NCBI RefSeq assembly: GCF_050920415.1
Contig: NZ_CP169309.1
Reading direction: 5' to 3' (one strand)
DNA from: Escherichia coli
Lineage (GTDB): Bacteria; Pseudomonadota; Gammaproteobacteria; Enterobacterales; Enterobacteriaceae
Length of the DNA stretch: 64,000 nt
Positions within the stretch are counted from its first letter, which is position 1. The number at the start of each line of letters is the position of its first letter. Below the pieces are notes generated by a model that did no database searches, was not told the DNA's origin, and saw nothing but the letters and a program-made list of their open reading frames with translations. A program made the position numbers and the translations under genes. Of the stretch, positions 231-51,708 are shown piece after piece.

Positions 231-588
231 AAAGTCCTGTCCAGAAAGAAGTCGGCCTCGCAAAAATGAATAAACCCAGTTTCTCTTGCGCAACAGGTGG
301 AGAAGTCGAATACGCAGTATGTAAAAAATGAGGCAATAGATTCACTGGGGAGGTCGCGAGGAGGCGCAATTCTACAAAATTGCGCATTTCACTACCAGTC
401 TGGAGTCAGCCCGGATATGAACTGCAACTATTGCAAATAAAGAAATTAAGCTGGAAGGCATCACGCAATGAGGAAGATTGCCGGGTGCTGACGGTAAAAA
501 GCAATCGTAAAATCAGCGGCAAGCCGGAAAGGTTCCGGTGAGGCGCAATGTTGCGGGGGCTTAATCCCTGGTGGCATTGGTTGCTGGA

Positions 589-657
589 GAGAGAAAACCC
601 CCGCACGTTGCAGATATTCACCTGACAACATCACGGGGGCTAATCTTGAACCTAGAC
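589..657 (-). ncRNA. rdlD: Rdl antisense RNA, antitoxin of ldr (unit 1)
   Basis: Reverse complement gtctaggttcaagattagcccccgtgatgttgtcagg...gcgggggttttctctc matches my recollection of RdlD and ends in a GC stem plus U-tract. Ends are approximate. Confidence 0.45.
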
Positions 658-705
658 CACTCAAGAATAGCCGCGAAACGTTGTCATTACAACACAGGCG
701 GCTAT

Positions 706-813
706 ATGACGCTCGCAGAACTGGGCATGGCCTTCTGGCATGATTTAGCGGCTCCGGTCATTGCTGGCATTCTTGCCAGTCTGATCGTGAACTGGCTGAA
801 CAAGCGGAAGTAA
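706..813 (+). CDS. ldrD: Ldr-family type I toxin, 35 aa (unit 1)
   Basis: ATG at 706; MTLAELGMAFWHDLAAPVIAGILASLIVNWLNKRK. Small hydrophobic peptide with basic C-terminus, matching LdrD. Confidence 0.85.
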   Translation: MTLAELGMAFWHDLAAPVIAGILASLIVNWLNKRK

Positions 814-863
814 CGTGTCAGACGGGCGTCAGGCTGCCGTAATGGCAATTTGCGCCCGGACCA

Positions 864-895
864 GGCCGCAGGGATAAAACTCTGCGGCCTTTTTC
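864..895 (+). terminator. Rho-independent terminator of ldr unit 1
   Basis: Stem ggccgcag...ctgcggcc followed by tttttc. Confidence 0.6.
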
Positions 896-1071
896 GTAAG
901 AAAAATGCAACGGTTGCAAGCGGATAATATTCTGCGGAATGCGCAGCACAGAGTGAAGAAGTGATGGATTCTGGAACAGAAAAACAGTCGTAGAATCAGC
1001 GGCAAGCCGGAAGGGTTCCGGTGAGGCGCAATGTTGCGGGGGCTTTATCCCTGGTGGCATTGGTTGCTGGA

Positions 1072-1140
1072 GAGAGAAAACCCCCGCACGTTGCAGGTAT
1101 GCACCTGACAACATCACGGGGGCCATTCTTGCATCCAAAC
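1072..1140 (-). ncRNA. rdlD: Rdl antisense RNA (unit 2)
   Basis: Same position in the repeat as unit 1. The 5' part differs (ccattcttgcatccaaac variant). Confidence 0.4.
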
Positions 1141-1188
1141 AATACAAGAATAGCCGCGAAACGTTGTCATTACAACAGAGGCGGCTAT

Positions 1189-1296
1189 ATGACGCTCGCA
1201 GAACTGGGCATGGCCTTCTGGCATGATTTAGCGGCTCCGGTCATTGCTGGCATTCTTGCCAGTCTGATCGTGAACTGGCTGAACAAGCGGAAGTAA
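1189..1296 (+). CDS. ldrD: Ldr-family type I toxin, 35 aa (unit 2)
   Basis: ATG at 1189; peptide identical to unit 1. Confidence 0.85.
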   Translation: MTLAELGMAFWHDLAAPVIAGILASLIVNWLNKRK

Positions 1297-1346
1297 CGTG
1301 TCAGACGGGCGTCAGGCTGCCGTAATGGCAATTTGCGCCCGGACCA

Positions 1347-1378
1347 GGCCGCAGGGATAAAACTCTGCGGCCTTTTTC
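1347..1378 (+). terminator. Rho-independent terminator of ldr unit 2
   Basis: Same hairpin plus T-run as unit 1. Confidence 0.6.
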
Positions 1379-1555
1379 GTAAGAAAAATGCAACGGTTGC
1401 AAGCGGATAATATTCTGCGGAATGCGCAGCACAGAGTGAAGAAGTGATGGATTTCGACGAACAAAAATGGCCGTAGAATCAGCGGCAAGCCGGAAGGGTT
1501 CCGGTGAGGCGCAATGTTGCGGGGGGCTTTATCCCTGGTGGCATTGGTTGCTGGA

Positions 1556-1624
1556 GAGAGAAAACCCCCGCACGTTGCAGGTATGCACCTGACAACACCA
1601 CGGGGGCCATTCTTGCATCTAGAC
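1556..1624 (-). ncRNA. rdlD: Rdl antisense RNA (unit 3)
   Basis: Same position in the repeat; approximate ends. Confidence 0.4.
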
Positions 1625-1672
1625 CATTCAAGAATAGCCGCGAAACGTTGTCATTACAACAGAGGCGGCTAT

Positions 1673-1780
1673 ATGACGCTCGCAGAGCTGGGCATGGCCT
1701 TCTGGCATGATTTAGCGGCTCCGGTCATTGCTGGCATTCTTGCCAGCATGATCGTGAACTGGCTGAACAAGCGGAAGTAA
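1673..1780 (+). CDS. ldrD: Ldr-family type I toxin, 35 aa (unit 3)
   Basis: ATG at 1673; MTLAELGMAFWHDLAAPVIAGILASMIVNWLNKRK (L to M variant). Confidence 0.85.
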   Translation: MTLAELGMAFWHDLAAPVIAGILASMIVNWLNKRK

Positions 1781-1830
1781 CGTGTCAGACGGGCGTCAGG
1801 CTGCCGTAATGGCAATTTGCGCCCGGATCA

Positions 1831-1862
1831 GGCCGCAGGGATAAAACTCTGCGGCCTTTTTC
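1831..1862 (+). terminator. Rho-independent terminator of ldr unit 3
   Basis: Same hairpin plus T-run. Confidence 0.6.
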
Positions 1863-2038
1863 GTAAGAAAAATGCAACGGTTGCAAGCGGATAATATTCT
1901 GCGGAATGCGCAGCACAGAGTGAAGAAGTGACGGATTCCGGAACAGAAAAACAGTCGTAGAATTAGCGGCAAGCCGGAAGGGTTCCGGTGAGGCGCAATG
2001 TTGCGGGGGCTTTATCCCTGGTGGCATTGGTTGCTGGA

Positions 2039-2107
2039 GAGAGAAAACCCCCGCACGTTGCAGGTATGCACCTGACAACATCACGGGGGCTAATCTTGAA
2101 CCCAAAC
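2039..2107 (-). ncRNA. rdlD: Rdl antisense RNA (unit 4)
   Basis: Same position in the repeat; approximate ends. Confidence 0.4.
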
Positions 2108-2155
2108 AACTCAAGAATAGCCGCGAAACGTTGTCATTACAACAGAGGCGGCTAT

Positions 2156-2263
2156 ATGACGCTCGCAGAACTGGGCATGGCCTTCTGGCATGATTTAGCG
2201 GCTCCGGTCATTGCTGGCATTCTTGCCAGTCTGATCGTGAACTCGCTGAATAAGTGGAAGTAA
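2156..2263 (+). CDS. ldrD: Ldr-family type I toxin, 35 aa (unit 4, C-terminal variant)
   Basis: ATG at 2156; MTLAELGMAFWHDLAAPVIAGILASLIVNSLNKWK. C-terminus differs from the other copies (W to S, R to W). Confidence 0.75.
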   Translation: MTLAELGMAFWHDLAAPVIAGILASLIVNSLNKWK

Positions 2264-2313
2264 CGTGTCATGCGGGCGTCAGGCTGCCGTAATGGCAATT
2301 TGCGCCCGGATCA

Positions 2314-2349: not shown

Positions 2350-4029
2350 TTATTGCGGGTAAGGCACCCAGTCGCCGCCGTTCAGGCGAACGTACGGTTT
2401 ATCCTGGTATTGAATAACTACTGCATTTGAGTTCTCGGAGACCGGTGCTGTTTGTGGCAACCCACTGGTGAGTTTTTTCCAGTCAACATTGTCTTCGGTG
2501 AAAATCTTACCATCAAGAACGCGAACCACCAGATCGGAGATAGCCAGGAAGCTGCTCGGTTGGTTGATGACAATCGGTGCCCCCTGATGTGGTGCCTTCA
2601 TGCCGAAGAATTTCACCCCAACGGGGACGTCTGTGATAGACGGGCTAGGGATATCACGTAGGCCAGATACCTGCATTCTGTCGCCCTTCAGCGCGCCACC
2701 GTGTTCCGGCACCACTACCACCATCACTTTACGACCCGATTTCTCCAGTTCAGTAAAGAAGGCGTCCAGCTCATCAAAGAATTTCTGCGCTCGCGCTTTG
2801 TAATCCGCTGTTTTGCTGACGCCCGGATAATGGTTGCCGTCATGCAGTGGAAGCGTGTTGTAGAACGTGGCACTACGGCTGTTTTTATCTTTTTCGGTAA
2901 CGTCCAGCCAGCGGTTAAGCACGGCGGTATCGTCATAAACCGGCGAACCATCAAAGCCCAACAAAATAACCGGCAGATTTGTTTGATCCATCAATTCGGT
3001 CTGCATGCCGCCATTTTCGCGAACTTCTTTCAAAAAACCGCCGAACTGGCCGTTATGTCCCATCATCAGGTGCTGGGTAAAGCCCAGTTTCGACAGGTTA
3101 TCAAACAGATAGCAGTCGTTATTTGCCGGTTGATACAGATTAGTGTGCGAAGTCTGCCCGCAGCTGGCGCGCAGTAAACGGATCGCCGCCGGGCCACTGT
3201 AGGAGGTGGCGGAGTTAAAGTTCTTGAACTCAATATCGAAATGCGACCACAGCGGATGCGACATCAACCCGGCGGCTTCAATATCCGACCAGGAAAGCGA
3301 ACAGATATTAATCACCAGTAGTTCAAATGGCTGAGCATCAGCGGGCAGCGAAGACGGGAAGGTCGATTTACGTTTCGCCTCCGCGTTATAGAAATTATTC
3401 AGCCAGGCGTTAAGGTTCGCCGTTGTTGGCGGTGCAGTTTGTGCGGGCATATCACCCACTACCGGTGCGCCACCCGTCGCCGCAACGGTTGCCGCTGCGT
3501 TACCACCCGTCGTTGTTACAGTGGTCGTCGGTTGACCGGCAGGCCACAAGGAGAAACTTGGTCCCGCCAGGGTAAGTACGTTCAGCCATAGCAGAATGGC
3601 AACCACAAAAACGGTAATGCGAATCCATTGTGACAGGAATAACCAGGCCACTAATAAAACAAAAATGGCCCCAATCATCTGCCAGTTAATAAAGCGTGTG
3701 ACAAGGTCGATTAAATAATCGGTACTGAACCCCGCCACCTGCGAACCCTGGCTCATTATGCTTTCCGGGCCAGGCAACCAGGTGTCATGCCAGAACAAAG
3801 CAAAGCCGATCGGCAGGGCAATCCAGTGGCGTAAGCGATGCAGGCTGTAGCGCGGAATGGGCATCAGCAGAAACGCGGCAAACACCAGATTGAGGAGCGG
3901 ATGGAAGTTAAGATATCCCGCCCACAACAGGCCGAACTTAACCAGAAAATAGAAGTTCCAGCCGGAAAGGCCGCGCCAGTATTGCCAGAGGGAAGAAGGC
4001 ATGGCGGTATTTTGCGTAAATTGAGTCAT
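2350..4029 (-). CDS. bcsG: Cellulose phosphoethanolamine transferase BcsG (YhjU)
   Basis: 559-aa ORF with N-terminal membrane segments and a C-terminal sulfatase-like domain; length and position match BcsG. Confidence 0.9.
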
Positions 4030-4217
4030 TTTTTGGTTGCCCTGGCTTTTTCCGTGCGGCGTAACGTCCCGGCCGGTTTAACATAACGAGGTTTAGCAAA
4101 GAACAAACGTAAGGTGTCGCGAATGCGTCGCAAAGAGTGCCGCGCCAGATAGCCCAGCGGGAAAAATATCAGTGCGCAAACGACAATAATTTCAATGATA
4201 TCGCTGATGGTCATCAT
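4026..4217 (-). CDS. bcsF: Cellulose biosynthesis protein BcsF (YhjT), small membrane protein
   Basis: 63 aa, [27 protein letters not shown]...; overlaps bcsG by 4 nt. Confidence 0.88.
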
Positions 4218-5785
4218 GATGAGCGCTCCACAGCATCATCTAACAGTCGCATTGGTTCTGGTATTCTTCGCCAGTGGCGACCATCGTGCTCGGCATTGAT
4301 GACCGGTTTAGAACTTTGCGTTAAAGGCAGCGGCATGCCCCATTGTTCTGGGGCAAGCAGGCGCATCTGCACCAGCTCGGCACTGATTTGATCATCTTCA
4401 AACCAGACCATACGGTTTGAGAAAATGTCGCCAGTCGGCAATGGGAAAATATGATTCAACGCGGTATCCAGATCGTTAATCCGACAGAATGAGAGAAACA
4501 GCACCAGCCGATTACCGCCAATGGTCATGATATCGCCGGTACGGTTAGGGCGACACAGCGTCAGGGCTTGCTCAACGCGGATACCCGGTACCGGACGTAG
4601 GGCAACCAGAACGCCTTTACCATGTGCAGGCAAGAGAGGGTTATTCATCATGTTGTTAACGGCATTACAGAACACATCCCACTTCTGGAAACCACGCAGT
4701 TTGAGCGGCTGGGTCATTGACAGCAAGGTAGTGATATCTTCCGGCACATAGCGACTAAACTTCTGCCCTTGCACGCTTTCGATCATCGTCAGACAGCGGG
4801 AGAGTGGCGCATTCCACGGGATAACCATATTTGCACCGCAGGCCAATAATAAACGTTCATCGGTGGCGCGCAGGCTTGCAGTATTTTCCCGTACGAGGAT
4901 TTTCATCGCACTACCGCGCTGGCGACGCAGAGTATGAATGCTGCGGGCCAGTGGCTCGATTTGCGCATTTTGCTGTAAAGAAAAGACCACCGTCGCCGCC
5001 TGAGCTGTACGGGCTTCATTGAACAGAACTTCGTTATTGTTGAACAGTTGCCAGTGTTCCGATAGGGGCGGTGCACCTTCCAGTACAGCAACATTACTCA
5101 GAATGCGTTTTTCGTCGCTGCGTGGTTGGATCTCCGCCTCTTCGCTTTGAACTAATGTCCAGATACCATTTTGTTGCTGAACGCTAAGCTGCTGACGGGC
5201 GCTGACCCCTTTTTCGTTGCACCAGAAGGCAATATCCAGCAAATGTTGGTCGCCCTGAAAACGCAAACTGGCAAGACCAAAAAGTGAACGGTATTCCTCA
5301 AGCAACAATGAAAATTGTTTATCGTTATTATTTCCGGGATTAATTACCAAAAGCGAACAATGGTTTAACCTGCTCCATTTATTCATTTTATCCAACCATG
5401 AGCGAAGCCGCTCGGCAGGAATGTTTTGCCATGCGTTATTTGCGCAAACAAGAATAAAAAGGTAATTATTGGGATCAATAGAACACTGCAAATCACGGGC
5501 CAAATAGTATAGACCTTTTTCATGATTTAGCATTGAAAATAATTTTATTTTTTCCGGCCCTTGAGAATCATCTAATTGAAAGATTTTCGCCGGATCGCTG
5601 TCCATGCTAATGACCGCGACGTGTGCGGTTTCAGCCTGGGATGCAATTGTTTGATTCGCCAGACTGATAGCATCTTCATGGCGATCGACGTTAAACCACC
5701 AGACGCCGCCTGCTGGCATATGTCGCAGCTCATCCCATAATGATGAGATACCGATAGAGAATACAGGGTCCACAATGTCCCTCAT
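4214..5785 (-). CDS. bcsE: Cellulose biosynthesis protein BcsE (YhjS), c-di-GMP-binding
   Basis: 523 aa; overlaps the bcsF start by 4 nt; divergent from bcsR. Confidence 0.9.
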
Positions 5786-6056
5786 GTCATCATTTTGTCT
5801 GATTATCAGTTTACTAGCGAAAGCTAAGAAATAAACCTACCATTGAAATTAAAACTTATCAGATTTAGCATGTGAATCAATTTAGCAGGTCACAAGACGT
5901 GTGATTTTAGTCTTTTCGTTTTTAACTTTTTTTGTTGCGTAACGGAAAGTCAAAAAGTGAGCAAATTCCCGTCTCGCCGTAAACAATAAACCGGCGAAAT
6001 GCTCACGGTTAGAATTGTCTCATGAACGGTGCGGTTATTTCATAGGGATCAAGCAA
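5786..6056. promoter_or_regulatory. Divergent promoter region between bcsEFG and bcsRQABZC
   Basis: 271-bp AT-rich intergenic region between divergent operon starts. Confidence 0.5.
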
Positions 6057-6245
6057 ATGAATAACAATGAACCAGATACTCTGCCTGATCCCGCGATAGG
6101 CTATATCTTCCAGAATGATATTTTGGCGTTAAAGCAGGCATTTTCACTGCCTGATATTGATTATGCCGATATTTCCCAACGCGAACAGTTGGCCGCGGCA
6201 TTAAAACGCTGGCCGTTGCTGGCAGAGTTTGCGCAACAAAAGTAG
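6057..6245 (+). CDS. bcsR: Cellulose biosynthesis regulator BcsR (YhjR)
   Basis: 62 aa from ATG 6057, MNNNEPDTLPDPAIGYIFQNDILALKQAF...; the listed ORF 6015-6245 is an upstream extension. Confidence 0.85.
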   Translation: MNNNEPDTLPDPAIGYIFQNDILALKQAFSLPDIDYADISQREQLAAALKRWPLLAEFAQQK

Positions 6246-6256: not shown

Positions 6257-7009
6257 ATGGCCGTACTGGGATTGCAGGGGGTGCGGGGAGGCGTGGGGAC
6301 AACAACCATCACTGCCGCATTAGCCTGGTCATTACAAATGTTGGGAGAAAATGTCCTGGTGGTCGATGCCTGCCCGGACAATTTGTTGCGCCTGTCATTT
6401 AACGTTGATTTTACCCACCGTCAGGGCTGGGCCAGAGCCATGCTGGACGGTCAGGACTGGCGTGACGCCGGGTTGCGCTATACCTCGCAGCTCGATTTGC
6501 TGCCTTTTGGTCAGTTATCCATTGAAGAACAAGAAAATCCTCAGCACTGGCAAACCCGGTTGAGCGATATTTGCTCCGGCTTACAGCAACTCAAAGCTAG
6601 CGGGCGTTACCAGTGGATTTTGATCGACTTACCGCGTGATGCCTCACAGATAACCCACCAGTTGCTGAGTTTGTGCGATCACTCGCTGGCAATCGTCAAT
6701 GTGGATGCCAACTGCCATATCCGGCTGCATCAGCAGGCGCTGCCGGATGGCGCGCATATTTTGATTAATGACTTCCGTATCGGCAGTCAGGTTCAGGACG
6801 ATATTTACCAGCTTTGGTTGCAAAGCCAGCGCCGATTACTGCCAATGCTCATTCATCGTGATGAAGCGATGGCTCAATGCCTGGCGGCTAAGCAACCAGT
6901 CGGTGAATACCGCAGTGATGCGCTGGCGGCTGAAGAGATACTGACGCTGGCTAACTGGTGCCTGTTGAACTATTCCGGGCTGAAAACGCCAGTCGGGAGT
7001 GCATCATGA
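6257..7009 (+). CDS. bcsQ: Cellulose synthase-associated ATPase BcsQ (ParA/MinD-like), intact
   Basis: 250 aa; P-loop-like GVRGGVGTTT. Codon 6 is TTG (Leu); K-12 lab strains carry a stop here as I recall. Confidence 0.9.
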   Translation: MAVLGLQGVRGGVGTTTITAALAWSLQMLGENVLVVDACPDNLLRLSFNVDFTHRQGWARAMLDGQDWRDAGLRYTSQLDLLPFGQLSIEEQENPQHWQTRLSDICSGLQQLKASGRYQWILIDLPRDASQITHQLLSLCDHSLAIVNVDANCHIRLHQQALPDGAHILINDFRIGSQVQDDIYQLWLQSQRRLLPMLIHRDEAMAQCLAAKQPVGEYRSDALAAEEILTLANWCLLNYSGLKTPVGSAS

Positions 7010-9624
7010 GTATCCTGACCCGGTGGTTGCTTATCCCGCCGGTCAACGCGCGGCTTATCGGGCGTTATCGCGATTATCGTCGTCACGGCGCGTCGGCTTT
7101 CAGCGCGACGCTCGGCTGTTTTTGGTTGATCCTGGCCTGGATTTTTATTCCGCTGGAGCACCCGCGCTGGCAGCGTATTCGCGCAGAACATAAAAACCTG
7201 TATCCGCATATCAACGCCTCGCGTCCGCGTCCGCTGGACCCGGTCCGTTATCTCATTCAAACATGCTGGTTACTGATCGGTACATCGCGCAAAGAAACGC
7301 CGAAACCGCGCAGGCGGGCAATTTCAGGTCTGCAGAATATTCGTGGCCGTTACCATCAATGGATGGACGAGTTGCCTGAGCGCGTTAGCCATAAAACACA
7401 GCATCTTGATGAGAAAAAAGAACTCGGTCATTTGAGCGCCGGGGCGCGGCGGTTGATCCTCGGTATCATCGTCACCTTCTCACTGATTTTGGCATTAATC
7501 TGCGTTACCCAGCCGTTTAACCCGCTGGCGCAGTTTATCTTCCTGATGCTGCTGTGGGGTGTAGCACTGATCGTACGACGAATGCCGGGACGCTTCTCGG
7601 CGCTGATGTTGATTGTGCTGTCGCTGACTGTTTCTTGCCGTTATATCTGGTGGCGCTACACCTCTACGCTGAACTGGGACGATCCGGTAAGTCTGGTGTG
7701 CGGGCTTATACTGCTGTTCGCTGAAACGTACGCGTGGATTGTGCTGGTGCTCGGCTACTTCCAGGTGGTATGGCCGCTGAATCGTCAGCCGGTGCCATTG
7801 CCGAAAGATATGTCGCTGTGGCCGTCGGTGGATATCTTTGTCCCGACTTACAACGAAGATCTCAACGTGGTGAAAAATACGATTTACGCCTCGCTGGGTA
7901 TCGACTGGCCGAAAGACAAGCTGAACATCTGGATCCTAGATGACGGCGGCAGGGAAGAGTTTCGCCAGTTTGCACAAAACGTGGGGGTGAAATATATCGC
8001 CCGTACCACTCATGAACATGCGAAAGCAGGCAACATCAACAATGCGCTGAAATATGCCAAAGGCGAGTTCGTGTCGATTTTCGACTGCGACCACGTACCA
8101 ACGCGATCGTTCCTGCAAATGACCATGGGCTGGTTCCTGAAAGAAAAACAGTTGGCGATGATGCAGACGCCGCACCACTTCTTCTCACCGGACCCGTTTG
8201 AACGCAACCTCGGGCGTTTTCGTAAAACGCCAAACGAAGGCACGCTGTTTTATGGTCTGGTGCAGGACGGCAATGATATGTGGGATGCCACTTTCTTCTG
8301 CGGTTCCTGTGCGGTGATTCGCCGTAAGCCGCTGGATGAGATTGGCGGTATTGCCGTCGAAACGGTAACCGAAGATGCGCATACTTCTCTGCGTCTGCAC
8401 CGTCGTGGCTACACTTCAGCGTATATGCGTATTCCACAGGCGGCGGGGCTGGCGACCGAAAGTCTGTCGGCGCATATCGGCCAACGTATTCGCTGGGCGC
8501 GTGGGATGGTGCAAATCTTCCGTCTTGATAACCCGCTCACCGGAAAAGGACTGAAGTTTGCTCAGCGGCTGTGCTACGTCAACGCCATGTTCCATTTCTT
8601 GTCGGGCATTCCACGACTGATCTTTCTGACTGCGCCGCTGGCGTTCCTGCTGCTGCATGCCTACATCATCTACGCGCCAGCGTTAATGATTGCTCTGTTT
8701 GTGCTGCCGCATATGATTCACGCCAGCCTGACCAACTCGAAGATTCAGGGTAAATATCGCCACTCTTTCTGGAGCGAAATCTACGAAACGGTACTGGCGT
8801 GGTATATCGCACCACCGACGCTGGTGGCGCTGATTAACCCGCACAAAGGCAAATTTAACGTCACCGCCAAAGGTGGACTGGTGGAAGAAGAGTACGTCGA
8901 CTGGGTGATCTCACGGCCCTACATTTTCCTGGTATTGCTCAACCTGGTCGGTATTGCGGTCGGTATCTGGCGTTACTTCTACGGCCCGCCAACCGAGATG
9001 CTCACTGTCATCGTCAGTATGGTGTGGGTGTTCTACAACCTGATTATTCTCGGTGGTGCGGTAGCGGTATCGGTAGAAAGCAAACAGGTTCGCCGATCGC
9101 ACCGCGTGGAGATGACGATGCCCGCGGCAATTGCCCGCGAAGATGGTCACCTCTTCTCGTGTACCGTTCAGGATTTCTCCGACGGTGGTTTGGGGATCAA
9201 GATCAACGGTCAGGCACAGATTCTGGAAGGGCAGAAAGTGAATCTGTTGCTTAAACGCGGTCAGCAAGAATACGTCTTCCCGGCCCAGGTGGCGCGCGTG
9301 ATGGGTAATGAAGTTGGGCTGAAATTAATGCCGCTCACCACCCAGCAACATATCGATTTTGTGCAGTGTACGTTTGCCCGTGCGGATACATGGGCGCTCT
9401 GGCAGGACAGCTATCCGGAAGATAAGCCGCTGGAAAGTCTGCTGGATATTCTGAAGCTCGGCTTCCGTGGCTACCGCCATCTGGCGGAGTTTGCGCCTTC
9501 TTCGGTGAAGGGCATATTCCGTGTGCTGACTTCTCTGGTTTCCTGGGTTGTATCGTTTATTCCGCGCCGCCCGGAGCGGAGCGAAACGGCACAACCATCG
9601 GATCAGGCTTTGGCTCAACAATGA
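7006..9624 (+). CDS. bcsA: Cellulose synthase catalytic subunit BcsA (GT2 plus PilZ)
   Basis: 872 aa from ATG 7006 (MSILTRWLL...); start overlaps the bcsQ stop (ATGA); glycosyltransferase motifs. Confidence 0.92.
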   Translation: MSILTRWLLIPPVNARLIGRYRDYRRHGASAFSATLGCFWLILAWIFIPLEHPRWQRIRAEHKNLYPHINASRPRPLDPVRYLIQTCWLLIGTSRKETPKPRRRAISGLQNIRGRYHQWMDELPERVSHKTQHLDEKKELGHLSAGARRLILGIIVTFSLILALICVTQPFNPLAQFIFLMLLWGVALIVRRMPGRFSALMLIVLSLTVSCRYIWWRYTSTLNWDDPVSLVCGLILLFAETYAWIVLVLGYFQVVWPLNRQPVPLPKDMSLWPSVDIFVPTYNEDLNVVKNTIYASLGIDWPKDKLNIWILDDGGREEFRQFAQNVGVKYIARTTHEHAKAGNINNALKYAKGEFVSIFDCDHVPTRSFLQMTMGWFLKEKQLAMMQTPHHFFSPDPFERNLGRFRKTPNEGTLFYGLVQDGNDMWDATFFCGSCAVIRRKPLDEIGGIAVETVTEDAHTSLRLHRRGYTSAYMRIPQAAGLATESLSAHIGQRIRWARGMVQIFRLDNPLTGKGLKFAQRLCYVNAMFHFLSGIPRLIFLTAPLAFLLLHAYIIYAPALMIALFVLPHMIHASLTNSKIQGKYRHSFWSEIYETVLAWYIAPPTLVALINPHKGKFNVTAKGGLVEEEYVDWVISRPYIFLVLLNLVGIAVGIWRYFYGPPTEMLTVIVSMVWVFYNLIILGGAVAVSVESKQVRRSHRVEMTMPAAIAREDGHLFSCTVQDFSDGGLGIKINGQAQILEGQKVNLLLKRGQQEYVFPAQVARVMGNEVGLKLMPLTTQQHIDFVQCTFARADTWALWQDSYPEDKPLESLLDILKLGFRGYRHLAEFAPSSVKGIFRVLTSLVSWVVSFIPRRPERSETAQPSDQALAQQ

Positions 9625-9634: not shown

Positions 9635-11974
9635 ATGAAAAGAAAACTATTCTGGATTTGTGCAGTGGCTATGGGGATGAGTGCGTTCCCCTCTTTCATG
9701 ACGCAGGCGACGCCAGCAACGCAACCACTGATCAATGCTGAGCCAGCTGTAGCCGCCCAGACGGAACAAAATCCGCAGGTGGGGCAAGTGATGCCGGGCG
9801 TGCAGGGCGCTGATGCCCCCATCGTGGCGCAGAACGGTCCTTCGCGTGATGTGAAGCTGACCTTTGCGCAAATTGCGCCACCGCCGGGCAGCATGGTGCT
9901 ACGTGGCATTAACCCGAACGGCAGCATTGAGTTTGGTATGCGCAGCGATGAAGTGGTGACGAAGGCGATGCTCAACCTCGAATACACGCCATCGCCATCG
10001 TTACTGCCTGTCCAGTCGCAGTTAAAGGTTTATCTCAATGATGAACTGATGGGCGTGCTGCCAGTGACCAAAGAACAGTTGGGTAAAAAAACGCTGGCAC
10101 AAATGCCAATTAACCCACTGTTTATTACCGACTTCAACCGTGTGCGGCTGGAGTTTGTCGGTCATTATCAGGACGTGTGCGAAAACCCGGCCAGCACCAC
10201 GCTTTGGCTGGATGTTGGGCGGAGCAGTGGACTGGATCTGACCTATCAGACCCTGAATGTGAAGAATGATCTGTCACACTTCCCGGTACCATTCTTTGAC
10301 CCGCGTGATAACCGCACCAACACCTTGCCGATGGTCTTTGCGGGTGCGCCGGATGTTGGGCTGCAACAAGCATCTGCCATTGTCGCCTCGTGGTTTGGTT
10401 CGCGTTCTGGCTGGCGTGGGCAGAACTTCCCGGTGCTCTATAACCAACTGCCGGATCGCAATGCCATCGTTTTTGCCACTAATGACAAACGCCCGGACTT
10501 CCTGCGCGATCATCCGGCGGTAAAAGCCCCGGTGATTGAGATGATCAACCATCCACAGAATCCTTACGTCAAACTGCTGGTGGTCTTTGGTCGTGACGAC
10601 AAAGACCTGTTGCAGGCAGCGAAAGGTATCGCTCAGGGTAACATTCTGTTCCGTGGTGAAAGCGTGGTAGTGAATGAAGTGAAACCGCTGCTACCGCGTA
10701 AGCCGTACGATGCGCCGAACTGGGTGCGTACCGATCGTCCGGTCACCTTTGGTGAACTGAAAACCTATGAAGAACAGTTACAATCCAGCGGTCTTGAGCC
10801 AGCAGCGATTAACGTTTCGCTAAACCTGCCGCCGGATCTCTACCTGATGCGCAGTACCGGCATTGATATGGATATCAACTATCGCTACACCATGCCGCCG
10901 GTGAAAGACAGTTCGCGGATGGATATCAGCCTGAATAACCAGTTCCTGCAATCCTTCAACCTGAGCAGTAAACAGGAGGCGAACCGCCTGCTGCTGCGTA
11001 TTCCGGTATTACAAGGTTTGCTGGATGGCAAAACGGATGTCTCTATTCCGGCGCTGAAACTGGGCGCGACCAACCAGTTGCGGTTCGACTTTGAGTATAT
11101 GAACCCGATGCCGGGCGGTTCGGTGGATAACTGTATTACCTTCCAGCCGGTGCAGAATCATGTGGTGATTGGTGACGACTCCACCATCGACTTCTCGAAG
11201 TATTACCACTTCATCCCGATGCCGGATCTACGCGCCTTTGCTAACGCGGGCTTCCCGTTCAGCCGGATGGCGGATCTGTCACAAACCATCACCGTGATGC
11301 CGAAAGCGCCTAACGAAGCACAGATGGAAACCTTGCTGAATACCGTTGGCTTTATCGGTGCGCAGACGGGCTTCCCGGCGATTAACCTGACGGTGACCGA
11401 TGATGGCAGCACCATTCAGGGCAAAGATGCCGACATCATGATTATCGGTGGTATCCCGGACAAACTGAAAGACGACAAGCAGATCGACCTGTTGGTGCAG
11501 GCGACCGAAAGCTGGGTGAAAACGCCGATGCGCCAGACCCCGTTCCCCGGCATTGTGCCGGACGAGAGCGATCGCGCGGCAGAAACTCAATCAACGCTGA
11601 CCTCTTCCGGTGCGATGGCAGCGGTGATTGGCTTCCAGTCGCCGTATAACGACCAGCGTAGCGTGATTGCGCTGCTGGCAGATAGCCCACGCGGTTATGA
11701 AATGCTTAACGATGCGGTGAACGATAGCGGCAAACGCGCCACCATGTTCGGCTCGGTCGCGGTGATCCGCGAGTCCGGTATCAATAGCCTGCGTGTTGGC
11801 GACGTCTATTACGTTGGCCATCTGCCGTGGTTCGAACGCTTATGGTATGCGCTGGCAAACCATCCGATTCTGCTGGCGGTGCTGGCGGCAATCAGCGTCG
11901 TGCTGCTGGCCTGGGTACTGTGGCGTTTGCTGCGTATTATCAGCCGTCGTCGTCTTAACCCGGATAACGAGTAA
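9635..11974 (+). CDS. bcsB: Cellulose synthase periplasmic subunit BcsB
   Basis: 779 aa from ATG 9635 (MKRKLFWICAVAMGMSAF...); signal peptide and C-terminal membrane anchor. Confidence 0.92.
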   Translation: MKRKLFWICAVAMGMSAFPSFMTQATPATQPLINAEPAVAAQTEQNPQVGQVMPGVQGADAPIVAQNGPSRDVKLTFAQIAPPPGSMVLRGINPNGSIEFGMRSDEVVTKAMLNLEYTPSPSLLPVQSQLKVYLNDELMGVLPVTKEQLGKKTLAQMPINPLFITDFNRVRLEFVGHYQDVCENPASTTLWLDVGRSSGLDLTYQTLNVKNDLSHFPVPFFDPRDNRTNTLPMVFAGAPDVGLQQASAIVASWFGSRSGWRGQNFPVLYNQLPDRNAIVFATNDKRPDFLRDHPAVKAPVIEMINHPQNPYVKLLVVFGRDDKDLLQAAKGIAQGNILFRGESVVVNEVKPLLPRKPYDAPNWVRTDRPVTFGELKTYEEQLQSSGLEPAAINVSLNLPPDLYLMRSTGIDMDINYRYTMPPVKDSSRMDISLNNQFLQSFNLSSKQEANRLLLRIPVLQGLLDGKTDVSIPALKLGATNQLRFDFEYMNPMPGGSVDNCITFQPVQNHVVIGDDSTIDFSKYYHFIPMPDLRAFANAGFPFSRMADLSQTITVMPKAPNEAQMETLLNTVGFIGAQTGFPAINLTVTDDGSTIQGKDADIMIIGGIPDKLKDDKQIDLLVQATESWVKTPMRQTPFPGIVPDESDRAAETQSTLTSSGAMAAVIGFQSPYNDQRSVIALLADSPRGYEMLNDAVNDSGKRATMFGSVAVIRESGINSLRVGDVYYVGHLPWFERLWYALANHPILLAVLAAISVVLLAWVLWRLLRIISRRRLNPDNE

Positions 11975-11980: not shown

Positions 11981-13087
11981 ATGAATGTGTTGCGTAGTGG
12001 ACTCGTGACGATGCTGCTGCTGGCTGCCTTTAGTGTTCAGGCTGCCTGCAACTGGCCTGCCTGGGAGCAGTTCAAAAAGGATTACATCAGTCAGGAAGGG
12101 CGCGTCATCGACCCCAGCGACGCGCGCAAAATCACCACCTCCGAAGGGCAAAGTTACGGCATGTTCTTTGCCCTGGCGGCTAACGACCGTGCAGCTTTCG
12201 ATAATATTCTCGACTGGACGCAGAACAATCTCGCTCAGGGTTCTTTAAAAGAACATTTGCCCGCCTGGCTGTGGGGCAAGAAAGAGAACAGTAAGTGGGA
12301 AGTGCTGGACAGCAATTCGGCCTCTGATGGTGATGTCTGGATGGCCTGGTCGTTGCTGGAGGCGGGGCGTTTGTGGAAAGAGCAGCGTTATACCGACATC
12401 GGCAGCGCGTTGTTAAAACGTATTGCGCGGGAGGAAGTGGTGACGGTGCCTGGGCTGGGTTCCATGTTGTTGCCGGGCAAAGTGGGATTTGCAGAGGATA
12501 ACAGCTGGCGTTTTAACCCCAGCTACCTGCCGCCGACGCTGGCGCAGTATTTCACCCGCTTTGGCGCGCCGTGGACTACGCTGCGCGAAACCAATCAACG
12601 TTTATTGCTGGAAACCGCCCCGAAAGGCTTTTCGCCAGACTGGGTGCGCTATGAGAAAGACAAAGGCTGGCAGCTAAAAGCCGAAAAAACATTGATCAGC
12701 AGCTACGACGCTATCCGTGTTTACATGTGGGTAGGCATGATGCCTGACAGCGATCCGCAAAAAGCGCGGATGCTCAACCGGTTTAAACCGATGGCGACAT
12801 TCACCGAGAAAAACGGCTATCCGCCGGAAAAAGTCGATGTGGCTACGGGGAAAGCGCAGGGTAAAGGACCGGTCGGTTTTTCTGCCGCCATGCTGCCCTT
12901 TTTACAAAACCGCGATGCACAGGCCGTTCAGCGCCAGCGCGTGGCCGATAACTTTCCCGGCAGCGATGCCTATTACAACTATGTGCTGACCCTGTTTGGA
13001 CAAGGCTGGGATCAACACCGTTTCCGCTTCTCGACAAAAGGTGAGTTATTACCTGACTGGGGCCAGGAATGCGCAAATTCACACTAA
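11981..13087 (+). CDS. bcsZ: Endo-1,4-beta-glucanase BcsZ (GH8)
   Basis: 368 aa from ATG 11981 ([21 protein letters not shown]...); signal peptide. Confidence 0.9.
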
Positions 13088-16000
13088 ACATATTCACGCT
13101 TTCCCTCGGTCTGGCCGTCATGCCGATGGTCGAGGCAGCACCAACCGCTCAGCAACAGTTGCTGGAGCAAGTTCGGTTAGGCGAAGCGACCCATCGTGAA
13201 GATCTGGTGCAACAGTCGTTGTATCGGCTGGAACTTATTGATCCGAATAACCCGGACGTCGTTGCCGCCCGTTTCCGTTCTCTGTTACGTCAGGGCGATA
13301 TTGATGGCGCGCAAAAACAGCTCGATCGGCTGTCGCAGTTAGCGCCGAGTTCAAATGCGTATAAATCGTCGCGGACCACAATGTTACTTTCTACGCCGGA
13401 TGGTCGTCAGGCACTGCAACAGGCAAGATTGCAGGCGACTACCGGTCATGCAGAAGAAGCTGTGGCGAGTTACAACAAGCTGTTCAACGGTGCGCCGCCG
13501 GAAGGTGACATTGCCGTCGAGTACTGGAGTACGGTGGCGAAAATTCCGGCTCGCCGTGGCGAAGCGATTAATCAGCTAAAACGCATCAATGCGGATACGC
13601 CGGGCAATACGGGCCTGCAAAACAATCTGGCGCTATTGCTGTTTAGTAGCGATCGGCGTGATGAAGGTTTTGCTGTACTGGAGCAGATGGCGAAATCGAA
13701 CGCCGGGCGCGAGGGAGCCTCTAAAATCTGGTACGGGCAGATTAAAGACATGCCTGTCAGCGATGCCAGCGTGCAGGCGCTGAAAAAATATCTCTCTATC
13801 TTTAGTGATGGCGACAGCGTAGCTGCTGCGCAATCGCAACTGGCAGAACAGCAAAAACAGCTGGCCGACCCTGCTTTCCGCGCTCGTGCGCAAGGTTTAG
13901 CGGCAGTGGACTCTGGCATGGCGGGTAAAGCCATTCCCGAACTACAACAGGCAGTGCGGGCGAACCCGAAAGACAGTGAGGCACTGGGGGCGCTGGGCCA
14001 GGCGTATTCTCAGAAAGGCGATCGCGCCAATGCGGTGGCGAATCTGGAAAAAGCCCTCGCACTGGACCCGCACAGCAGCAACAACGACAAATGGAACAGT
14101 CTGCTGAAAGTAAACCGCTACTGGCTGGCGATCCAGCAGGGTGATGCCGCGCTGAAAGCCAATAATCCTGACCGGGCAGAACGCCTGTTCCAGCAGGCGC
14201 GCAGTGTCGATAACACCGACAGCTATGCGGTGTTGGGGCTGGGCGATGTGGCGATGGCGCGAAAAGATTATTCCGCCGCCGAACGCTATTACCAGCAGAC
14301 GCTGCGCATGGACAGCGGCAATACCAACGCCGTGCGCGGGCTAGCGAATATTTACCGCCAGCAATCGCCAGAAAAAGCCGAAGCGTTTATCGCCTCGCTC
14401 TCTGCCAGCCAGCGGCGCAGCATTGATGATATCGAACGTAGCCTGCAAAACGATCGTCTGGCACAGCAGGCAGAGGCACTGGAAAAACAGGGCAAATGGG
14501 CGCAGGCAGCAGCACTTCAGCGGCAACGACTGGCACTGGACCCCGGCAGTGTATGGATTACTTACCGACTTTCGCAGGATCTCTGGCAGGCCGGACAACG
14601 CAGCCAGGCCGATACGTTAATGCGCAATCTCGTGCAGCAGAAGCCGAACGACCCGGAGCAGGTTTACGCTTACGGGCTGTACCTTTCAGGTCACGACCAG
14701 GACAGAGCGGCACTGGCGCATATCAACAGCCTGCCGCGTGCCCAGTGGAACAGCAATATTCAGGAGCTGGTTAATCGGCTGCAAAGCGACCAGGTGCTGG
14801 AAACCGCTAATCGCCTGCGAGAAAACGGTAAAGAGGCAGAAGCAGCAGCGATGCTGCGCCAGCAACCGCCTTCCTCGCGTATTGATCTGACGCTGGCTGA
14901 CTGGGCGCAACAACGACGTGATTACGCTGCTGCCCGTGCTGCATATCAGAATGTCCTGACGCGGGAGCCAACTAACGCTGATGCCATTCTTGGCCTGACG
15001 GAAGTGGATATCGCTGCCGGTGACAAAGCGGCGGCACGTAGCCAACTGGCGAAACTGCCTGCCTCCGATAACGCCTCCCTGAACACACAGCGGCGCGTGG
15101 CGCTGGCGCAGGCGCAGCTTGGCGATACCGCAGCGGCGCAGCAGACGTTTAACAAGCTGATCCCGCAGGCAAAATCTCAGCCACCGTCGATGGAAAGCGC
15201 GATGGTACTGCGCGACGGTGCGAAGTTTGAAGCACAGGCGGGCGATCCAACGCAGGCGCTGGAAACCTACAAAGACGCGATGGTTGCATCCGGTGTGACC
15301 ACGACGCGTCCGCAGGATAACGACACCTTTACCCGGCTGACTCGTAACGACGAGAAAGATGACTGGCTGAAACGCGGCGTGCGCAGCGATGCGGCAGATC
15401 TCTACCGCCAGCAGGATCTTAACGTCACCCTCGAGCACGATTACTGGGGGTCGAGCGGCACCGGTGGTTACTCCGATCTGAAAGCGCACACTACCATGTT
15501 GCAGGTGGATGCGCCGTATTCTGACGGGCGGATGTTCTTTCGCAGTGATTTCGTCAATATGAACGTCGGCAGTTTCTCCACTAATGCCGATGGCAAATGG
15601 GATGACAACTGGGGCACCTGTACATTACAGGACTGTAGCGGCAACCGCAGCCAGTCGGATTCCGGTGCCAGCGTGGCGGTCGGCTGGCGAAATGACGTCT
15701 GGAGCTGGGATATCGGCACCACGCCGATGGGCTTCAACGTGGTGGATGTGGTCGGCGGCATCAGTTACAGCGATGATATCGGGCCGCTGGGTTACACAGT
15801 TAACGCCCATCGTCGGCCCATCTCCAGTTCTTTGCTGGCCTTTGGCGGGCAAAAAGACTCCCCAGGCAATACCGGGAAAAAATGGGGCGGCGTGCGTGCC
15901 GACGGCGTGGGGCTAAGCCTGAGCTACGATAAAGGTGAAGCAAACGGCGTCTGGGCATCGCTTAGCGGCGACCAGTTAACCGGTAAAAATGTTGAAGATA

Positions 16001-16542
16001 ACTGGCGCGTGCGCTGGATGACGGGCTATTACTATAAGGTCATCAACCAGAACAATCGCCGCGTGACAATCGGCCTGAACAACATGATCTGGCATTACGA
16101 CAAAGATCTGAGTGGGTACTCACTCGGTCAGGGCGGTTACTACAGCCCGCAGGAATACCTGTCGTTTGCCATTCCGGTGATGTGGCGTGAGCGGACAGAA
16201 AACTGGTCGTGGGAGCTGGGGGCGTCTGGTTCGTGGTCGCATTCGCGCACCAAAACCATGCCGCGGTATCCGCTGATGAATCTGATCCCGACTGACTGGC
16301 AGGAAGAAGCTGCGCGGCAATCCAACGATGGCGGCAGCAGTCAGGGCTTTGGCTATACGGCGCGGGCATTACTTGAGCGTCGCGTCACATCCAACTGGTT
16401 TGTCGGTACGGCAATTGATATCCAGCAGGCGAAAGATTACGCGCCCAGCCATTTCCTGCTCTACGTACGTTATTCCGCCGCCGGATGGCAGGGTGACATG
16501 GATTTACCGCCGCAGCCGCTGATACCTTACGCCGACTGGTAA
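13069..16542 (+). CDS. bcsC: Cellulose export outer-membrane protein BcsC (TPR repeats plus beta-barrel)
   Basis: 1157 aa; signal peptide; overlaps the bcsZ end by 19 nt. Confidence 0.92.
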
Positions 16543-16623: not shown

Positions 16624-18612
16624 TTGCGCGTAAGTCGCTCGTTAACAATCAAGCAGATGGCAATGGTGGCAGCCGTTGTCCTGGTGTTCGTTTTTATTTT
16701 TTGCACCGTTTTGCTGTTCCATCTGGTCCAGCAGAATCGCTATAACACGGCTACGCAACTGGAAAGCATTGCTCGCTCTGTCCGCGAACCCTTATCTTCT
16801 GCCATTTTGAAAGGCGATATTCCCGAAGCGGAAGCTATTCTTGCCAGCATTAAACCGGCAGGCGTGGTCAGCCGTGCCGATGTGGTGCTGCCTAACCAGT
16901 TCCAGGCGCTGCGTAAAAGTTTTATTCCAGAGCGTCCGGTGCCGGTAATGGTTACTCGCATGTTTGAGCTACCGGTGCAAATCTCGCTGGGCGTTTACTC
17001 GCTGGAACGTCCGGCAAACCCGCAGCCAATTGCCTATCTGGTGCTACAGGCGGATTCCTTCCGCATGTATAAGTTCGTGATGAGCACCCTCTCAACGTTA
17101 GTGACCATTTACTTACTTTTGTCGTTAATATTGACGGTGGCGATTAGCTGGTGCATTAACCGCCTGATTTTGCATCCGTTACGCAATATTGCTCGTGAAC
17201 TTAACGCCATCCCAGCCCAGGAGCTTGTTGGTCACCAACTGGCATTACCACGTCTGCATCAGGACGATGAAATCGGTATGCTGGTGCGCAGTTACAACCT
17301 CAACCAGCAATTGCTGCAGCGCCATTATGAAGAACAGAACGAAAATGCGATGCGCTTCCCGGTGTCGGATTTGCCGAACAAAGCCTTGCTGATGGAGATG
17401 CTGGAGCAGGTTGTCGCGCGTAAACAAACCACCGCGCTGATGATTATCACCTGTGAAACCCTGCGTGATACTGCGGGCGTGCTGAAAGAGGCGCAACGAG
17501 AAATTCTGCTGCTGACGCTGGTGGAAAAACTCAAATCGGTACTGTCGCCACGTATGATCCTCGCGCAGATTAGTGGTTATGACTTTGCTGTCATTGCCAA
17601 CGGTGTACAGGAGCCGTGGCATGCTATTACTTTAGGTCAGCAAGTGCTCACTATCATGAGCGAGTGCCTGCCGATTGAACGTATTCAACTCCGTCCGCAC
17701 TGTAGCATTGGCGTGGCGATGTTCTACGGCGATCTCACCGCCGAACAGCTTTACAGTCGCGCTATTTCTGCGGCATTTACCGCTCGCCATAAAGGTAAGA
17801 ATCAGATTCAGTTCTTTGATCCGCAGCAGATGGAAGCCGCCCAACAGCGGTTGACGGAAGAGAGCGATATCCTTAATGCACTGGAAAATCATCAGTTTGC
17901 GATTTGGTTACAGCCACAGGTCGAGATGACCAGCGGTAAACTGGTCAGTGCGGAAGTGTTACTGCGTATCCAGCAACCGGATGGCAGTTGGGATCTGCCG
18001 GATGGCTTAATCGATCGCATTGAGTGCTGTGGGCTGATGGTTACCGTCGGTCACTGGGTGCTGGAAGAGTCCTGCCGACTGCTTGCTGCCTGGCAAGAGC
18101 GCGGCATTATGCTGCCCTTGTCGGTAAACCTCTCGGCGCTGCAACTGATGCACCCGAATATGGTGGCGGATATGCTGGAGCTGTTAACCCGCTATCGCAT
18201 TCAGCCGGGAACGCTGATTCTGGAAGTGACAGAAAGCCGACGTATTGACGACCCTCATGCAGCGGTGGCAATCCTCCGCCCGTTGCGTAATGCCGGCGTT
18301 CGGGTGGCGCTGGATGATTTCGGCATGGGCTACGCAGGGCTGCGTCAGCTGCAGCATATGAAATCGTTGCCAATCGACGTGTTAAAAATCGACAAAATGT
18401 TTGTTGAAGGCTTGCCGGAAGATAGCAGCATGATTGCTGCAATTATCATGTTGGCGCAAAGCCTGAACTTACAAATGATTGCCGAAGGCGTGGAGACTGA
18501 AGCACAACGCGACTGGCTGGCAAAAGCGGGCGTTGGTATTGCCCAGGGCTTCCTTTTTGCTCGCCCACTCCCTATTGAAATCTTCGAAGAGAGTTACCTG
18601 GGAGAAAAGTAG
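16624..18612 (+). CDS. pdeK: c-di-GMP phosphodiesterase PdeK (YhjK), membrane-anchored with EAL domain
   Basis: 662-aa ORF with TTG start at 16624 preceded by GGGGAG; N-terminal TM segment. Start codon is uncertain. Confidence 0.85.
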
Positions 18613-25958: not shown

Positions 25959-26056
25959 TGCCGGATGCGGCGTGAACGCCTTATCCGGCCTACAAATCCT
26001 TGCGAATTCAATATATTTTATGGAAATTCAGGCCTGATAAGCGTAGCGCATCAGGC
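25959..26056. repeat. REP/BIME palindromic elements
   Basis: gccggatgcggcgtgaacgccttatccggcctac and aggcctgataagcgtagcgcatcaggc between the yhjG and yhjE 3' ends. Confidence 0.75.
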
Positions 26057-37188: not shown

Positions 37189-37203
37189 TTTTTACCCAGA
37201 CAT

Positions 37204-37309
37204 AAAAAAAACCCGGCATAGGGGACCGGGAAGAGGATAGTCTGCCGTCTCCAGACTAATAAACCGTTATAACACTCCCTGTTGGCACGGGAAACTTTGT
37301 GCTCTCAGT
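37204..37309 (-). ncRNA. gadY: GadY small RNA, antisense to the gadX 3' end
   Basis: Reverse complement begins actgagagcacaaagtttcccgtgcc and ends in a poly-U terminator (A-run 37204-37211 on plus). Ends are approximate. Confidence 0.6.
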
Positions 37310-37555
37310 AAGTTAAATATAACTTTTACTGGAGATAAGATCAGCCATTTTTTTATAAACATAAGCTATGCGCTGTGTGAAAATATATTCTTCTTGCATT
37401 TTCTTATTATCAATTAACTGTTATGTCAAACTACTTTTTGGATAACTTTTGGTCCTACCAAATATGGCAGTTTATGCACGAAGAAGCGGTCTGGCATCAT
37501 TTCATTAGTATACTGAAATTGAAATAATCGCAGTAATGAAATATAAGGGATAGTC

Positions 37556-42942: not shown

Positions 42943-43280
42943 TTTAGTCCCTGAAAATTCTTGAGATATAACGGTTCTTTAAATTGCGCGCGAGGAGAGG
43001 TATGAGGGATTTACAGACCAGCGGCATAGTGGGGTTGTCAGCCAGTAAGATGGGATGCAAGCACAGTGATCGACATGGTGAGGTCAACGACAAAAAAAAT
43101 GTTGCCGTTCTGCCAACAGTTCCTGCCAGCATTCGGGCAACGAAGGGTTCTACTGGTGGATACACATACCAGGGGAATAAAGTCGTTTTCGCCTCTCCTT
43201 TAGTCATCACCGGGGATAATGAAATCAGCATCTGCATCCCTCTTCATGCCTGCCATCATTTTCAGTTAATTATGTCCTGA

Positions 43281-48459: not shown

Positions 48460-49683
48460 TTATGGGGTTATATTCTGGTAATGATTTGATAAGCGAATTC
48501 TTTTGCCAGTTGGTATTTCTATTTCCACCCCATAATTTATAGTTTTTTCATCAGGTAGCGATCTCTTTAAATAAGGTGCGTATGACATTTTTTTAGGATG
48601 AAACGTATCGTGTTGAAATATTTCGAATTGATATTCAGACATTTCTGCCCATGTTTGAATTTTATTGTATCGGGAGAGTGTCGTAAAGGCTTTAACTTGC
48701 TTATAACATTGTTTTTGGAATTCTTGCTGATATTTTATTATGTCGTTGTATGAAAGATTATTTACCCTGGTTTCTAATAATTCTATTATTGTCGAAGCAA
48801 TTTCCGCTTTTGCTCTTAAAGAGTTGTCATTAATGGTTAATAATGTTGAAAATAAACCATTGATTTGTTTGTCAACATATTGTTCATCTTTATGTAATTT
48901 TGTGATAGGGTTTTCCTTATGTGAAAAAATAGTATCAAATAAATTTGCGTCAGTGAAGTTTACATTAAGTAGATCTTCGAAATAAAACCTTGACAAGGTT
49001 AGAACGAACCCGGACAGGTCCTGTCCTGTCATATTGAAATCAATAAAGTTGGTTCCAGCAAAGACTTTCATCCTGTTTTCATTTTTACTGTGCTCAATAT
49101 ACAACCTTGTCATTTTTTGGTACAAGCGTTGAATATCTTTTATATCAGTTGGTAGATCAGTTCGTTGCCCAGAAAAATTTTTATTTTCGGAAGAAACGGT
49201 TTGGACACTGAATCTTACTGGTATTCCCTCTTCTACGAGAATTTTAGTTATGATTGGCTTATTGGGCTTAGGATTAAAGACAACAATGATTTTAGATTCA
49301 GAGTTTTTATTCTTTTCGTATCTAATGTTATTAATCTGATTAAGTATTGATTGTGTCTGTTGCGTAAGTGGTGTCGAACTTATCGTTTCAATGTTATTAA
49401 TAAGTTTTACAAGTTGAGCCACAACTTTTGAGTAGTCTGCATTTGTATATGTGGTGTTCGTGTGGCACGCATTAATTTGTTGGAGTTGTTGTTTCGCTAA
49501 ATCAAATTGTTCAGCGTTATATCCTTCTTCAGACAATGAAAAATTAACGGGTTGCTGTTCTTCCTGATTATCACAAGGCCACATCGGTGTGTTTGGTGTT
49601 TTAACATTGTCGGTATCTGTTGTGCGGTTATAAATATCGCCGTGATATGTGTTTATCATACCTGGGGTAAAGTCAATTGACAT
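48460..49683 (-). CDS. AT-rich hypothetical protein, 407 aa, possibly an uninterrupted yhiS ortholog
   Basis: Low-GC ORF rich in N, K and Q; segment [41 protein letters not shown] resembles pentapeptide-type repeats. Sits between slp and the ars region, where K-12 has an IS5-disrupted yhiS. Confidence 0.6.
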
Positions 49684-51277: not shown

Positions 51278-51289
51278 TGAATAAAACTA

Positions 51290-51311
51290 TATTTCCAGAA
51301 TAATCGAAATA
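51290..51311. promoter_or_regulatory. Candidate operator, palindrome 1, in the permease/regulator divergent intergenic region
   Basis: TATTTC-N10-GAAATA dyad (tatttccagaataatcgaaata). Confidence 0.4.
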
Positions 51312-51324
51312 AAGTTCAGATCAA

Positions 51325-51372: not shown

Positions 51373-51693
51373 ATGCAATTGGAAGAGGTCGCTAAGGCAC
51401 TGAAAGAGTTAGGTCATCCGACCCGTTTGTTCATATTTAAGCATCTGGTCAAAGCGGGGGAACAAGGTTTGCCGGTCGGTGAGTTGCAAAAGCAGCTTGG
51501 GATACCCGGCTCTACACTCAGTCACCATATTTCAGCACTGGTATCGGTAGGGTTGGTCAAACAAAACCGTGAGAGTCGGACGCTGATGTGTGTTTCGCAA
51601 TACGCAATGCTGGAAGCGATAATTGAATTCTTACGTGAGGAGTGCTGCGTAAACAGCAAAACAGATAGCGAAGGAGCCACGAAGAACAAATAA
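51373..51693 (+). CDS. ArsR/SmtB-family winged-helix transcriptional regulator (accessory, second ArsR-type gene)
   Basis: 106 aa; LGHPTRLFIFKHL...PGSTLSHHISALVSVGLV is a typical ArsR HTH; C-terminal cysteines (LMCVSQ...EECCVN) rather than the helix-3 CVC site; AGGGGG SD before the ATG. Confidence 0.75.
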   Translation: MQLEEVAKALKELGHPTRLFIFKHLVKAGEQGLPVGELQKQLGIPGSTLSHHISALVSVGLVKQNRESRTLMCVSQYAMLEAIIEFLREECCVNSKTDSEGATKNK

Positions 51694-51708
51694 GGGGGCA
51701 TATCCCCC
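51694..51708. terminator. Compact bidirectional terminator between the accessory regulator and arsC (convergent)
   Basis: gggggcatatccccc hairpin flanked by T-rich sequence on both strands in a 20-bp convergent gap. Confidence 0.45.

Follow-up and report, generated by a model that had tools for sequence, protein, structure and literature searches.

An ordinary wild-type bcsQ allele in a natural Escherichia coli chromosome that is not K-12

Results and Discussion

Main finding

The gene at positions 6257..7009 (plus strand) of the analyzed window, a stretch of 64,000 nt of an E. coli chromosome, is best explained as an ordinary wild-type bcsQ allele in a natural chromosome outside the K-12 lineage. 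The probability that the allele call, the identity of the gene, and the non-K-12 origin are all correct is estimated to be about 95%. The value of the result is one of bookkeeping only: it places the source among natural E. coli isolates, outside the K-12 laboratory strains, and it describes a cellulose locus that is free of the premature stops and frameshifts often seen in K-12 and several pathogenic lineages. Both the bcsQ stop codon of K-12 and its repair have been in the literature since 2013, and most E. coli genomes carry the wild-type allele. No open question is advanced by the finding of an intact bcsQ.

The bcsQ allele and the identity of the gene

The reading frame comprises 753 nt and 250 codons, begins with ATG, is uninterrupted, and encodes the MinD/ParA-like ATPase of the cellulose secretion system. 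From position 6257 onward the sequence reads ATG GCC GTA CTG GGA TTG CAG, and codon 6 (6272..6274, plus strand) is TTG for leucine. The diagnostic base is the T at position 6273, where K-12 has an A and thus a TAG stop codon. At the other end of the gene, the bcsQ stop codon TGA (7007-7009) overlaps the bcsA start codon ATG (7006-7008) in an ATGA junction (7006..7009, plus strand), a type of junction that is associated with translational coupling. The 4-nt overlap is likewise present in the K-12 annotation. An earlier note on this DNA had described the TTG at codon 6, the read-through to 250 amino acids, and the overlap with bcsA, and all three agree exactly with the sequence and with the list of open reading frames.

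The identity of the gene was analyzed with family models, and a full-length match to the BcsQ family above the curated cut-offs was found. The protein matched the BcsQ equivalog model NCBIfam NF007460 from end to end with 540.8 bits (cut-off 399), TIGR03371 with 294 bits (cut-off 158), and Pfam PF06564 with 379.8 bits. The N-terminal region, which covers the nucleotide-binding loop, also gave weak matches to MinD, ParA, and ArsA. The loop itself, GVRGGVGTTT at residues 8-17, is of the SIMIBI/MinD type; it lies just past codon 6 and is in frame and intact. The gene occupies the place of bcsQ in the bcsRQABZC operon, with the stop codon of bcsR 11 nt upstream and the start codon of bcsA overlapping by 4 nt.

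The closest known protein is the BcsQ (YhjQ) of cellulose-positive strains, e.g., the commensal strain 1094, for which the structures 6YBU, 6YAR, and 6YB3 of BcsRQ and BcsRQ-BcsE complexes are available. The crystallized E. coli BcsQ (6YBU) has the same length of 250 amino acids and is identical to the window protein at 247 positions, among them the whole N-terminal region including the nucleotide-binding loop, and its gene has the same operon position between bcsR and bcsA. The three differences are D172 for N, Q207 for E, and A249 for K in the window. The reading frame of the K-12 gene has D172 and A249 in common with the window, and only Q207 sets the window protein apart from it. A BcsQ protein that is 99% identical to that of the window was reportedly found by Le Quere and Ghigo in 2009 to bind ATP, to localize to the cell pole, and to be required for cellulose secretion.

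Comparison with the K-12 pseudogene

The bcsQ gene of MG1655 (b3534, NC_000913.3 3695233..3695985) is annotated as a pseudogene in RefSeq. The K-12 pseudogene, which is found in MG1655, W3110, and their derivatives, has the same locus, the same length of 753 nt, the same ATGA junction, and the same flanking genes as the window. A base-by-base comparison revealed 26 differences in 753 nt, i.e., 96.5% nucleotide identity: TTG in the window versus TAG in MG1655 at codon 6, and 25 further differences. In addition to the nonsense/sense change at codon 6, 24 of the differences are synonymous and one is a missense change (E207Q). Such an excess of synonymous changes is the pattern that would be expected from purifying selection on a functional gene.

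The earlier note had stated that K-12 strains carry a stop at codon 6 and had proposed the alignment to MG1655 as a check. The statement is correct, as the TAG in MG1655, the pseudogene annotation, and the literature all agree, and the alignment showed neither a stop codon at codon 6 of the window nor a TTG in K-12. K-12 derivatives are cellulose-negative through the bcsQ mutation 17T>A (TTG to TAG), restoration of TAG to TTG in W3110 (strain AR3110) brings cellulose back, and the defect has been explained either by a missing BcsQ or by polar effects on neighboring genes such as bcsA (PMC5944007, PMC7397504, PMC5014196). AR3110, a de-domesticated W3110 (Serra et al. 2013, as cited in PMC7397504, PMC5014196), has the same TTG at codon 6 as the window and is the experimental proof that TTG at this position in a K-12-like set of bcs genes is enough for cellulose production. 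Otherwise, AR3110 is K-12, whereas the window belongs to another lineage that is 3-5% diverged and has a different content of insertion sequences and ldr genes.

Distribution of the two alleles in the species

The frequency of the two alleles was quantified with a pair of 55-mers, identical except at the SNP, that were matched to 5,426 complete E. coli genomes. The SNP was placed at position 28 of the 55-mer, so that any 28-base megablast seed must span it. The 55-mer with T (TTG) matched 4,898 of the 5,426 genomes, or about 90%, and the 55-mer with A (TAG) matched 349. Sixty evenly spaced carriers of TAG were inspected among these 349, and all 60 look like K-12 laboratory derivatives by name, by source label, or by a genome size of 4.52-4.70 Mb; they include MG1655, W3110-type strains, DH5alpha, BW25113, J53, HB101, and MC4100. 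TTG is thus the norm in the species, and an intact codon 6 marks a strain as non-K-12 but no more precisely than that.

Truncations of bcsQ are also described outside the laboratory strains. According to supplementary data 3 of PMC10881479, the clones ST167, ST617, and ST744 of the ST10 complex share truncations of bcsQ and bcsZ. The sample of 60 TAG carriers suggests that the bcsQ truncation in these three clones may lie at a codon other than codon 6 of K-12.

Origin of the window

The window is collinear, in reverse orientation, with MG1655 3,700,792-3,639,280, and the identity in the long collinear blocks is 95.3-96.8%. The features by which a K-12 chromosome would be recognized, namely TAG at codon 6 of bcsQ, about 99.9% identity to MG1655, an IS5 element in yhiS, and a single ldrD gene, are all absent. 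Four structural differences from K-12 were found: four ldr/rdlD modules, a yhiS gene without IS5, an additional ArsP/ArsR segment, and an IS621 element. Judged from its sequence, the window is not from K-12, and several independent lines agree on this. As the DNA is 3-5% diverged, the non-K-12 status would be obvious even without the SNP at codon 6. The earlier note had arrived at a non-K-12 background as well, which is upheld by the identity values and the structural differences. Its description of a "K-12-like backbone" holds for the gene order, but this order is found species-wide, and in view of the divergence of the DNA the resemblance was overstated.

The nearest genome is that of strain MFDS1022581 (NZ_CP169399.1), which was isolated from animal-source food in South Korea and is 99.96-99.98% identical over the shared DNA. 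Over the 17.8-kb bcs block, the relative and the window are 100.0% identical, and bcsQ is annotated between bcsR and bcsA there too. Of the 5,426 complete genomes, only 10 records reach at least 99% identity over this block, and the next group follows at about 98%. By this measure, the window represents a rarely sequenced E. coli lineage. Like the window, MFDS1022581 carries the ArsP/ArsR segment and an IS621 behind uspB; it differs in having five ldr modules versus four and in an ArsP permease gene that is split by an IS2 element, whereas that of the window is intact.

Two other explanations of the intact codon 6 were considered. The window could be derived from a K-12 strain in which bcsQ had been repaired, as in AR3110, or in which the wild-type allele had been swapped in by P1 transduction. 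Strains with a repaired codon 6 do exist (PMC7397504, PMC5014196), but this explanation predicts about 100% identity to MG1655 save for one base, whereas the window differs from MG1655 by about 3-5% over the whole 64 kb and not just around bcsQ, and yhiS without IS5, four ldr copies, the extra ArsP/ArsR segment of 1.7 kb, and IS621 would all have to be accounted for in addition. A repaired K-12 of the AR3110 type is ruled out by the divergence and the four structural differences, and for K-12 ancestry in any of these forms only a very slight chance is left. Even less probable, to the point of being negligible, is that the T at codon 6 arose from faulty sequencing or assembly, or that the 250-codon frame is a chance reading frame. 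No support for an error or a chance frame was found, and both are ruled out by the results described above: the identical 55-mer with T is present in thousands of independent complete genomes, the bcs block of MFDS1022581 is the same base for base, and the protein fits the curated BcsQ models from end to end and matches the BcsQ of known structure.

The bcs locus

All genes of the locus were compared with their K-12 counterparts. On the plus strand, bcsR (yhjR; 6057..6245) encodes 62 amino acids, matches NCBIfam NF040717 and Pfam PF10945, and differs from K-12 at one amino acid. Downstream of bcsQ follow bcsA (7006..9624) for the cellulose synthase catalytic subunit of 872 amino acids with a C-terminal PilZ domain (8 differences, no gaps; 1792 bits with NF008558), bcsB (9635..11974) for 779 amino acids (7 differences, equal length, no internal stop), bcsZ (11981..13087) for 368 amino acids (4 differences), and bcsC (13069..16542) for 1157 amino acids (15 differences, no gaps). 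The minus strand carries bcsE (4214..5785; 523 amino acids, 2 differences), bcsF (4026..4217; 63 amino acids, 100% nucleotide identity to K-12), and bcsG (2350..4029) for the phosphoethanolamine transferase of 559 amino acids (3 differences). The operon is adjoined by pdeK (yhjK / hmsP; 16624..18612, plus strand), which encodes a c-di-GMP phosphodiesterase of 662 amino acids and is intact, in agreement with the annotation of MFDS1022581. Apart from bcsQ, which is treated above, the other eight bcs genes are intact as well. Each of the ten genes has the length of its K-12 counterpart and 0-15 amino acid substitutions, and the Bcs proteins of the window have 42 substitutions in total versus the K-12 proteins, including E207Q in BcsQ, 8 in BcsA, and 15 in BcsC.

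Pfam identified a GT2 and a PilZ domain in BcsA. The glycosyltransferase motifs of the pattern D,D,D,QxxRW are intact (DCD360, TED455, QRIRW493), as is FFCGS430, and so are the motifs for c-di-GMP in the PilZ domain, RRSHR696 (RxxxR) and DFSDGG723 (DxSxxG). A comparison of the nine bcs genes and pdeK with K-12 for hidden defects, i.e., indels, internal stops, lost BcsA motifs, or a degraded promoter region, revealed none. In gene content and reading frames, the locus has the complete structure of a type II (E. coli-type) cellulose locus, in which bcsRQABZC is divergent from bcsEFG and is followed by pdeK.

The divergent control region between bcsE and bcsR (5786..6056) has 4 substitutions in 271 nt versus MG1655. 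This intergenic region is thus 99% identical to K-12, versus 96-98% for the flanking genes, which suggests that the regulatory DNA between bcsE and bcsR may be under constraint.

Competence for cellulose formation

Published studies describe BcsQ as an ATPase of the MinD/ParA type without which no cellulose is synthesized, and they trace the lack of cellulose in K-12 to the TAG at codon 6. With a sense codon at this position, ribosomes would translate bcsQ to its end and could reinitiate at the overlap, and translation would thereby couple into bcsA. In K-12, ribosomes would terminate about 735 nt upstream, which would remove BcsQ and probably lower the level of BcsA. If signalling via RpoS, CsgD, and DgcC is functional, the source strain should make phosphoethanolamine-cellulose.

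The earlier note had called the locus cellulose-proficient. This holds in the sense of an intact locus with nine full-length bcs genes; what the sequence supports is genetic competence for cellulose. For the phenotype, RpoS, CsgD, and DgcC are required as well, and these are encoded outside the window. They were read in the 99.97% identical genome NZ_CP169399.1 as a proxy for the source strain; relative to the window, that genome has an additional ldr unit and an IS2 insertion. Its annotation shows rpoS (993 nt), csgD (651 nt), and adrA/dgcC (1116 nt) as intact coding sequences. On balance, it seems fairly probable that the source strain actually produces cellulose.

The competing explanation is that the locus is intact but the strain is cellulose-negative, or positive only under certain conditions, due to its regulation (rpoS, csgD, dgcC, or a high activity of PdeH/PdeK) or due to a missense substitution in a Bcs protein. 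There are precedents, as BL21 and H10407 lack nonsense mutations in bcs genes and yet are calcofluor-negative (PMC5944007), and the loss of cellulose is reported to be frequent, recurrent, and convergent in many E. coli sequence types (PMC10881479). The 42 substitutions in the Bcs proteins and the location of the regulator genes outside the window also leave room for such a defect. However, the substitutions avoid the catalytic and PilZ motifs of BcsA, the changes in bcsQ are mostly synonymous, the control region between bcsE and bcsR is conserved, and the three regulator genes are annotated at full length in the nearest relative. A strain that is negative in spite of its intact locus is therefore regarded as the unlikelier outcome, albeit one with a tangible chance, and cellulose production remains the preferred expectation.

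An additional observation was made in the nearest relative. A gene with a GGDEF domain next to pgaA, at the position of dgcT/ycdT (NZ_CP169399.1 3091025..3092391), is annotated as frameshifted. This is not the cellulose-specific cyclase, and the frameshift represents a difference in the c-di-GMP network of the lineage.

Further features of the window

Beside bcsG, four ldr/rdlD modules of the type I toxin-antitoxin class lie in tandem (555..2304, plus strand) with a spacing of 483-484 nt. They comprise four Ldr frames of 35 amino acids that end at 813, 1296, 1780, and 2263 (plus strand) and four Rfam hits for rdlD at 592-657, 1075-1140, 1559-1624, and 2042-2107 (minus strand). The earlier note had described this array as expanded, and indeed K-12 has only one copy at this locus (ldrD), whereas the window has four and MFDS1022581 five. 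Counts of four and five in genomes that are 99.97% identical show that the copy number changes between very close relatives. It is very doubtful that features of the lineage such as Q207 of BcsQ, the 15 substitutions in BcsC, or the variable ldr/rdlD array alter the behavior of cellulose formation or of the toxin-antitoxin modules. If they did, the copy number of the ldr array beside bcsG might, for example, evolve quickly and influence fitness, but no observation requires it.

The uninterrupted frame of 407 amino acids beside slp, which had been pointed out before, turned out to be yhiS (48460..49683, minus strand) without the IS5 element (IS5/insH11) that splits this gene in K-12. The alignment to MG1655 jumps across the IS5 site at window positions 48937/48940. 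The encoded protein had no match in Pfam or NCBIfam. The far side of yhiS beyond the IS5 site of K-12, together with the intergenic region (48940-49980), is 88.8% identical to K-12, versus about 96% in the surroundings.

This region is followed by a segment of 1.7 kb without a counterpart in K-12 (49980-51694), which adjoins arsRBC. It contains an intact gene for an ArsP_1-family permease (Pfam PF03773; 50264..51277, minus strand) and a gene for an ArsR/SmtB regulator (about 51374..51694, plus strand).

At the end of the window (about 63100-64000), the homology to K-12 stops just past uspB. At the same position, MFDS1022581 has an IS621 of the IS110 family between uspB and pitA. The IS621 transposase gene would start near window position 63294, and the window ends within it. 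A repeat of about 100 nt between yhjG and yhjE (25959-26056) matches K-12 3639208-3639306 beside uspB with 87% identity, and this uspB-side match lies in the neighborhood of IS621 in the lineage of the window. The repeat is possibly a REP-type element.

Small RNAs were identified at the Rfam gathering score, all on the minus strand and all at the positions expected from K-12. Two AgrB-family sRNAs lie opposite dinQ (54000-54082 and 54233-54316), and GadY and ES205, the latter downstream of gadE, were found at 37199-37312 and 43092-43163, respectively.
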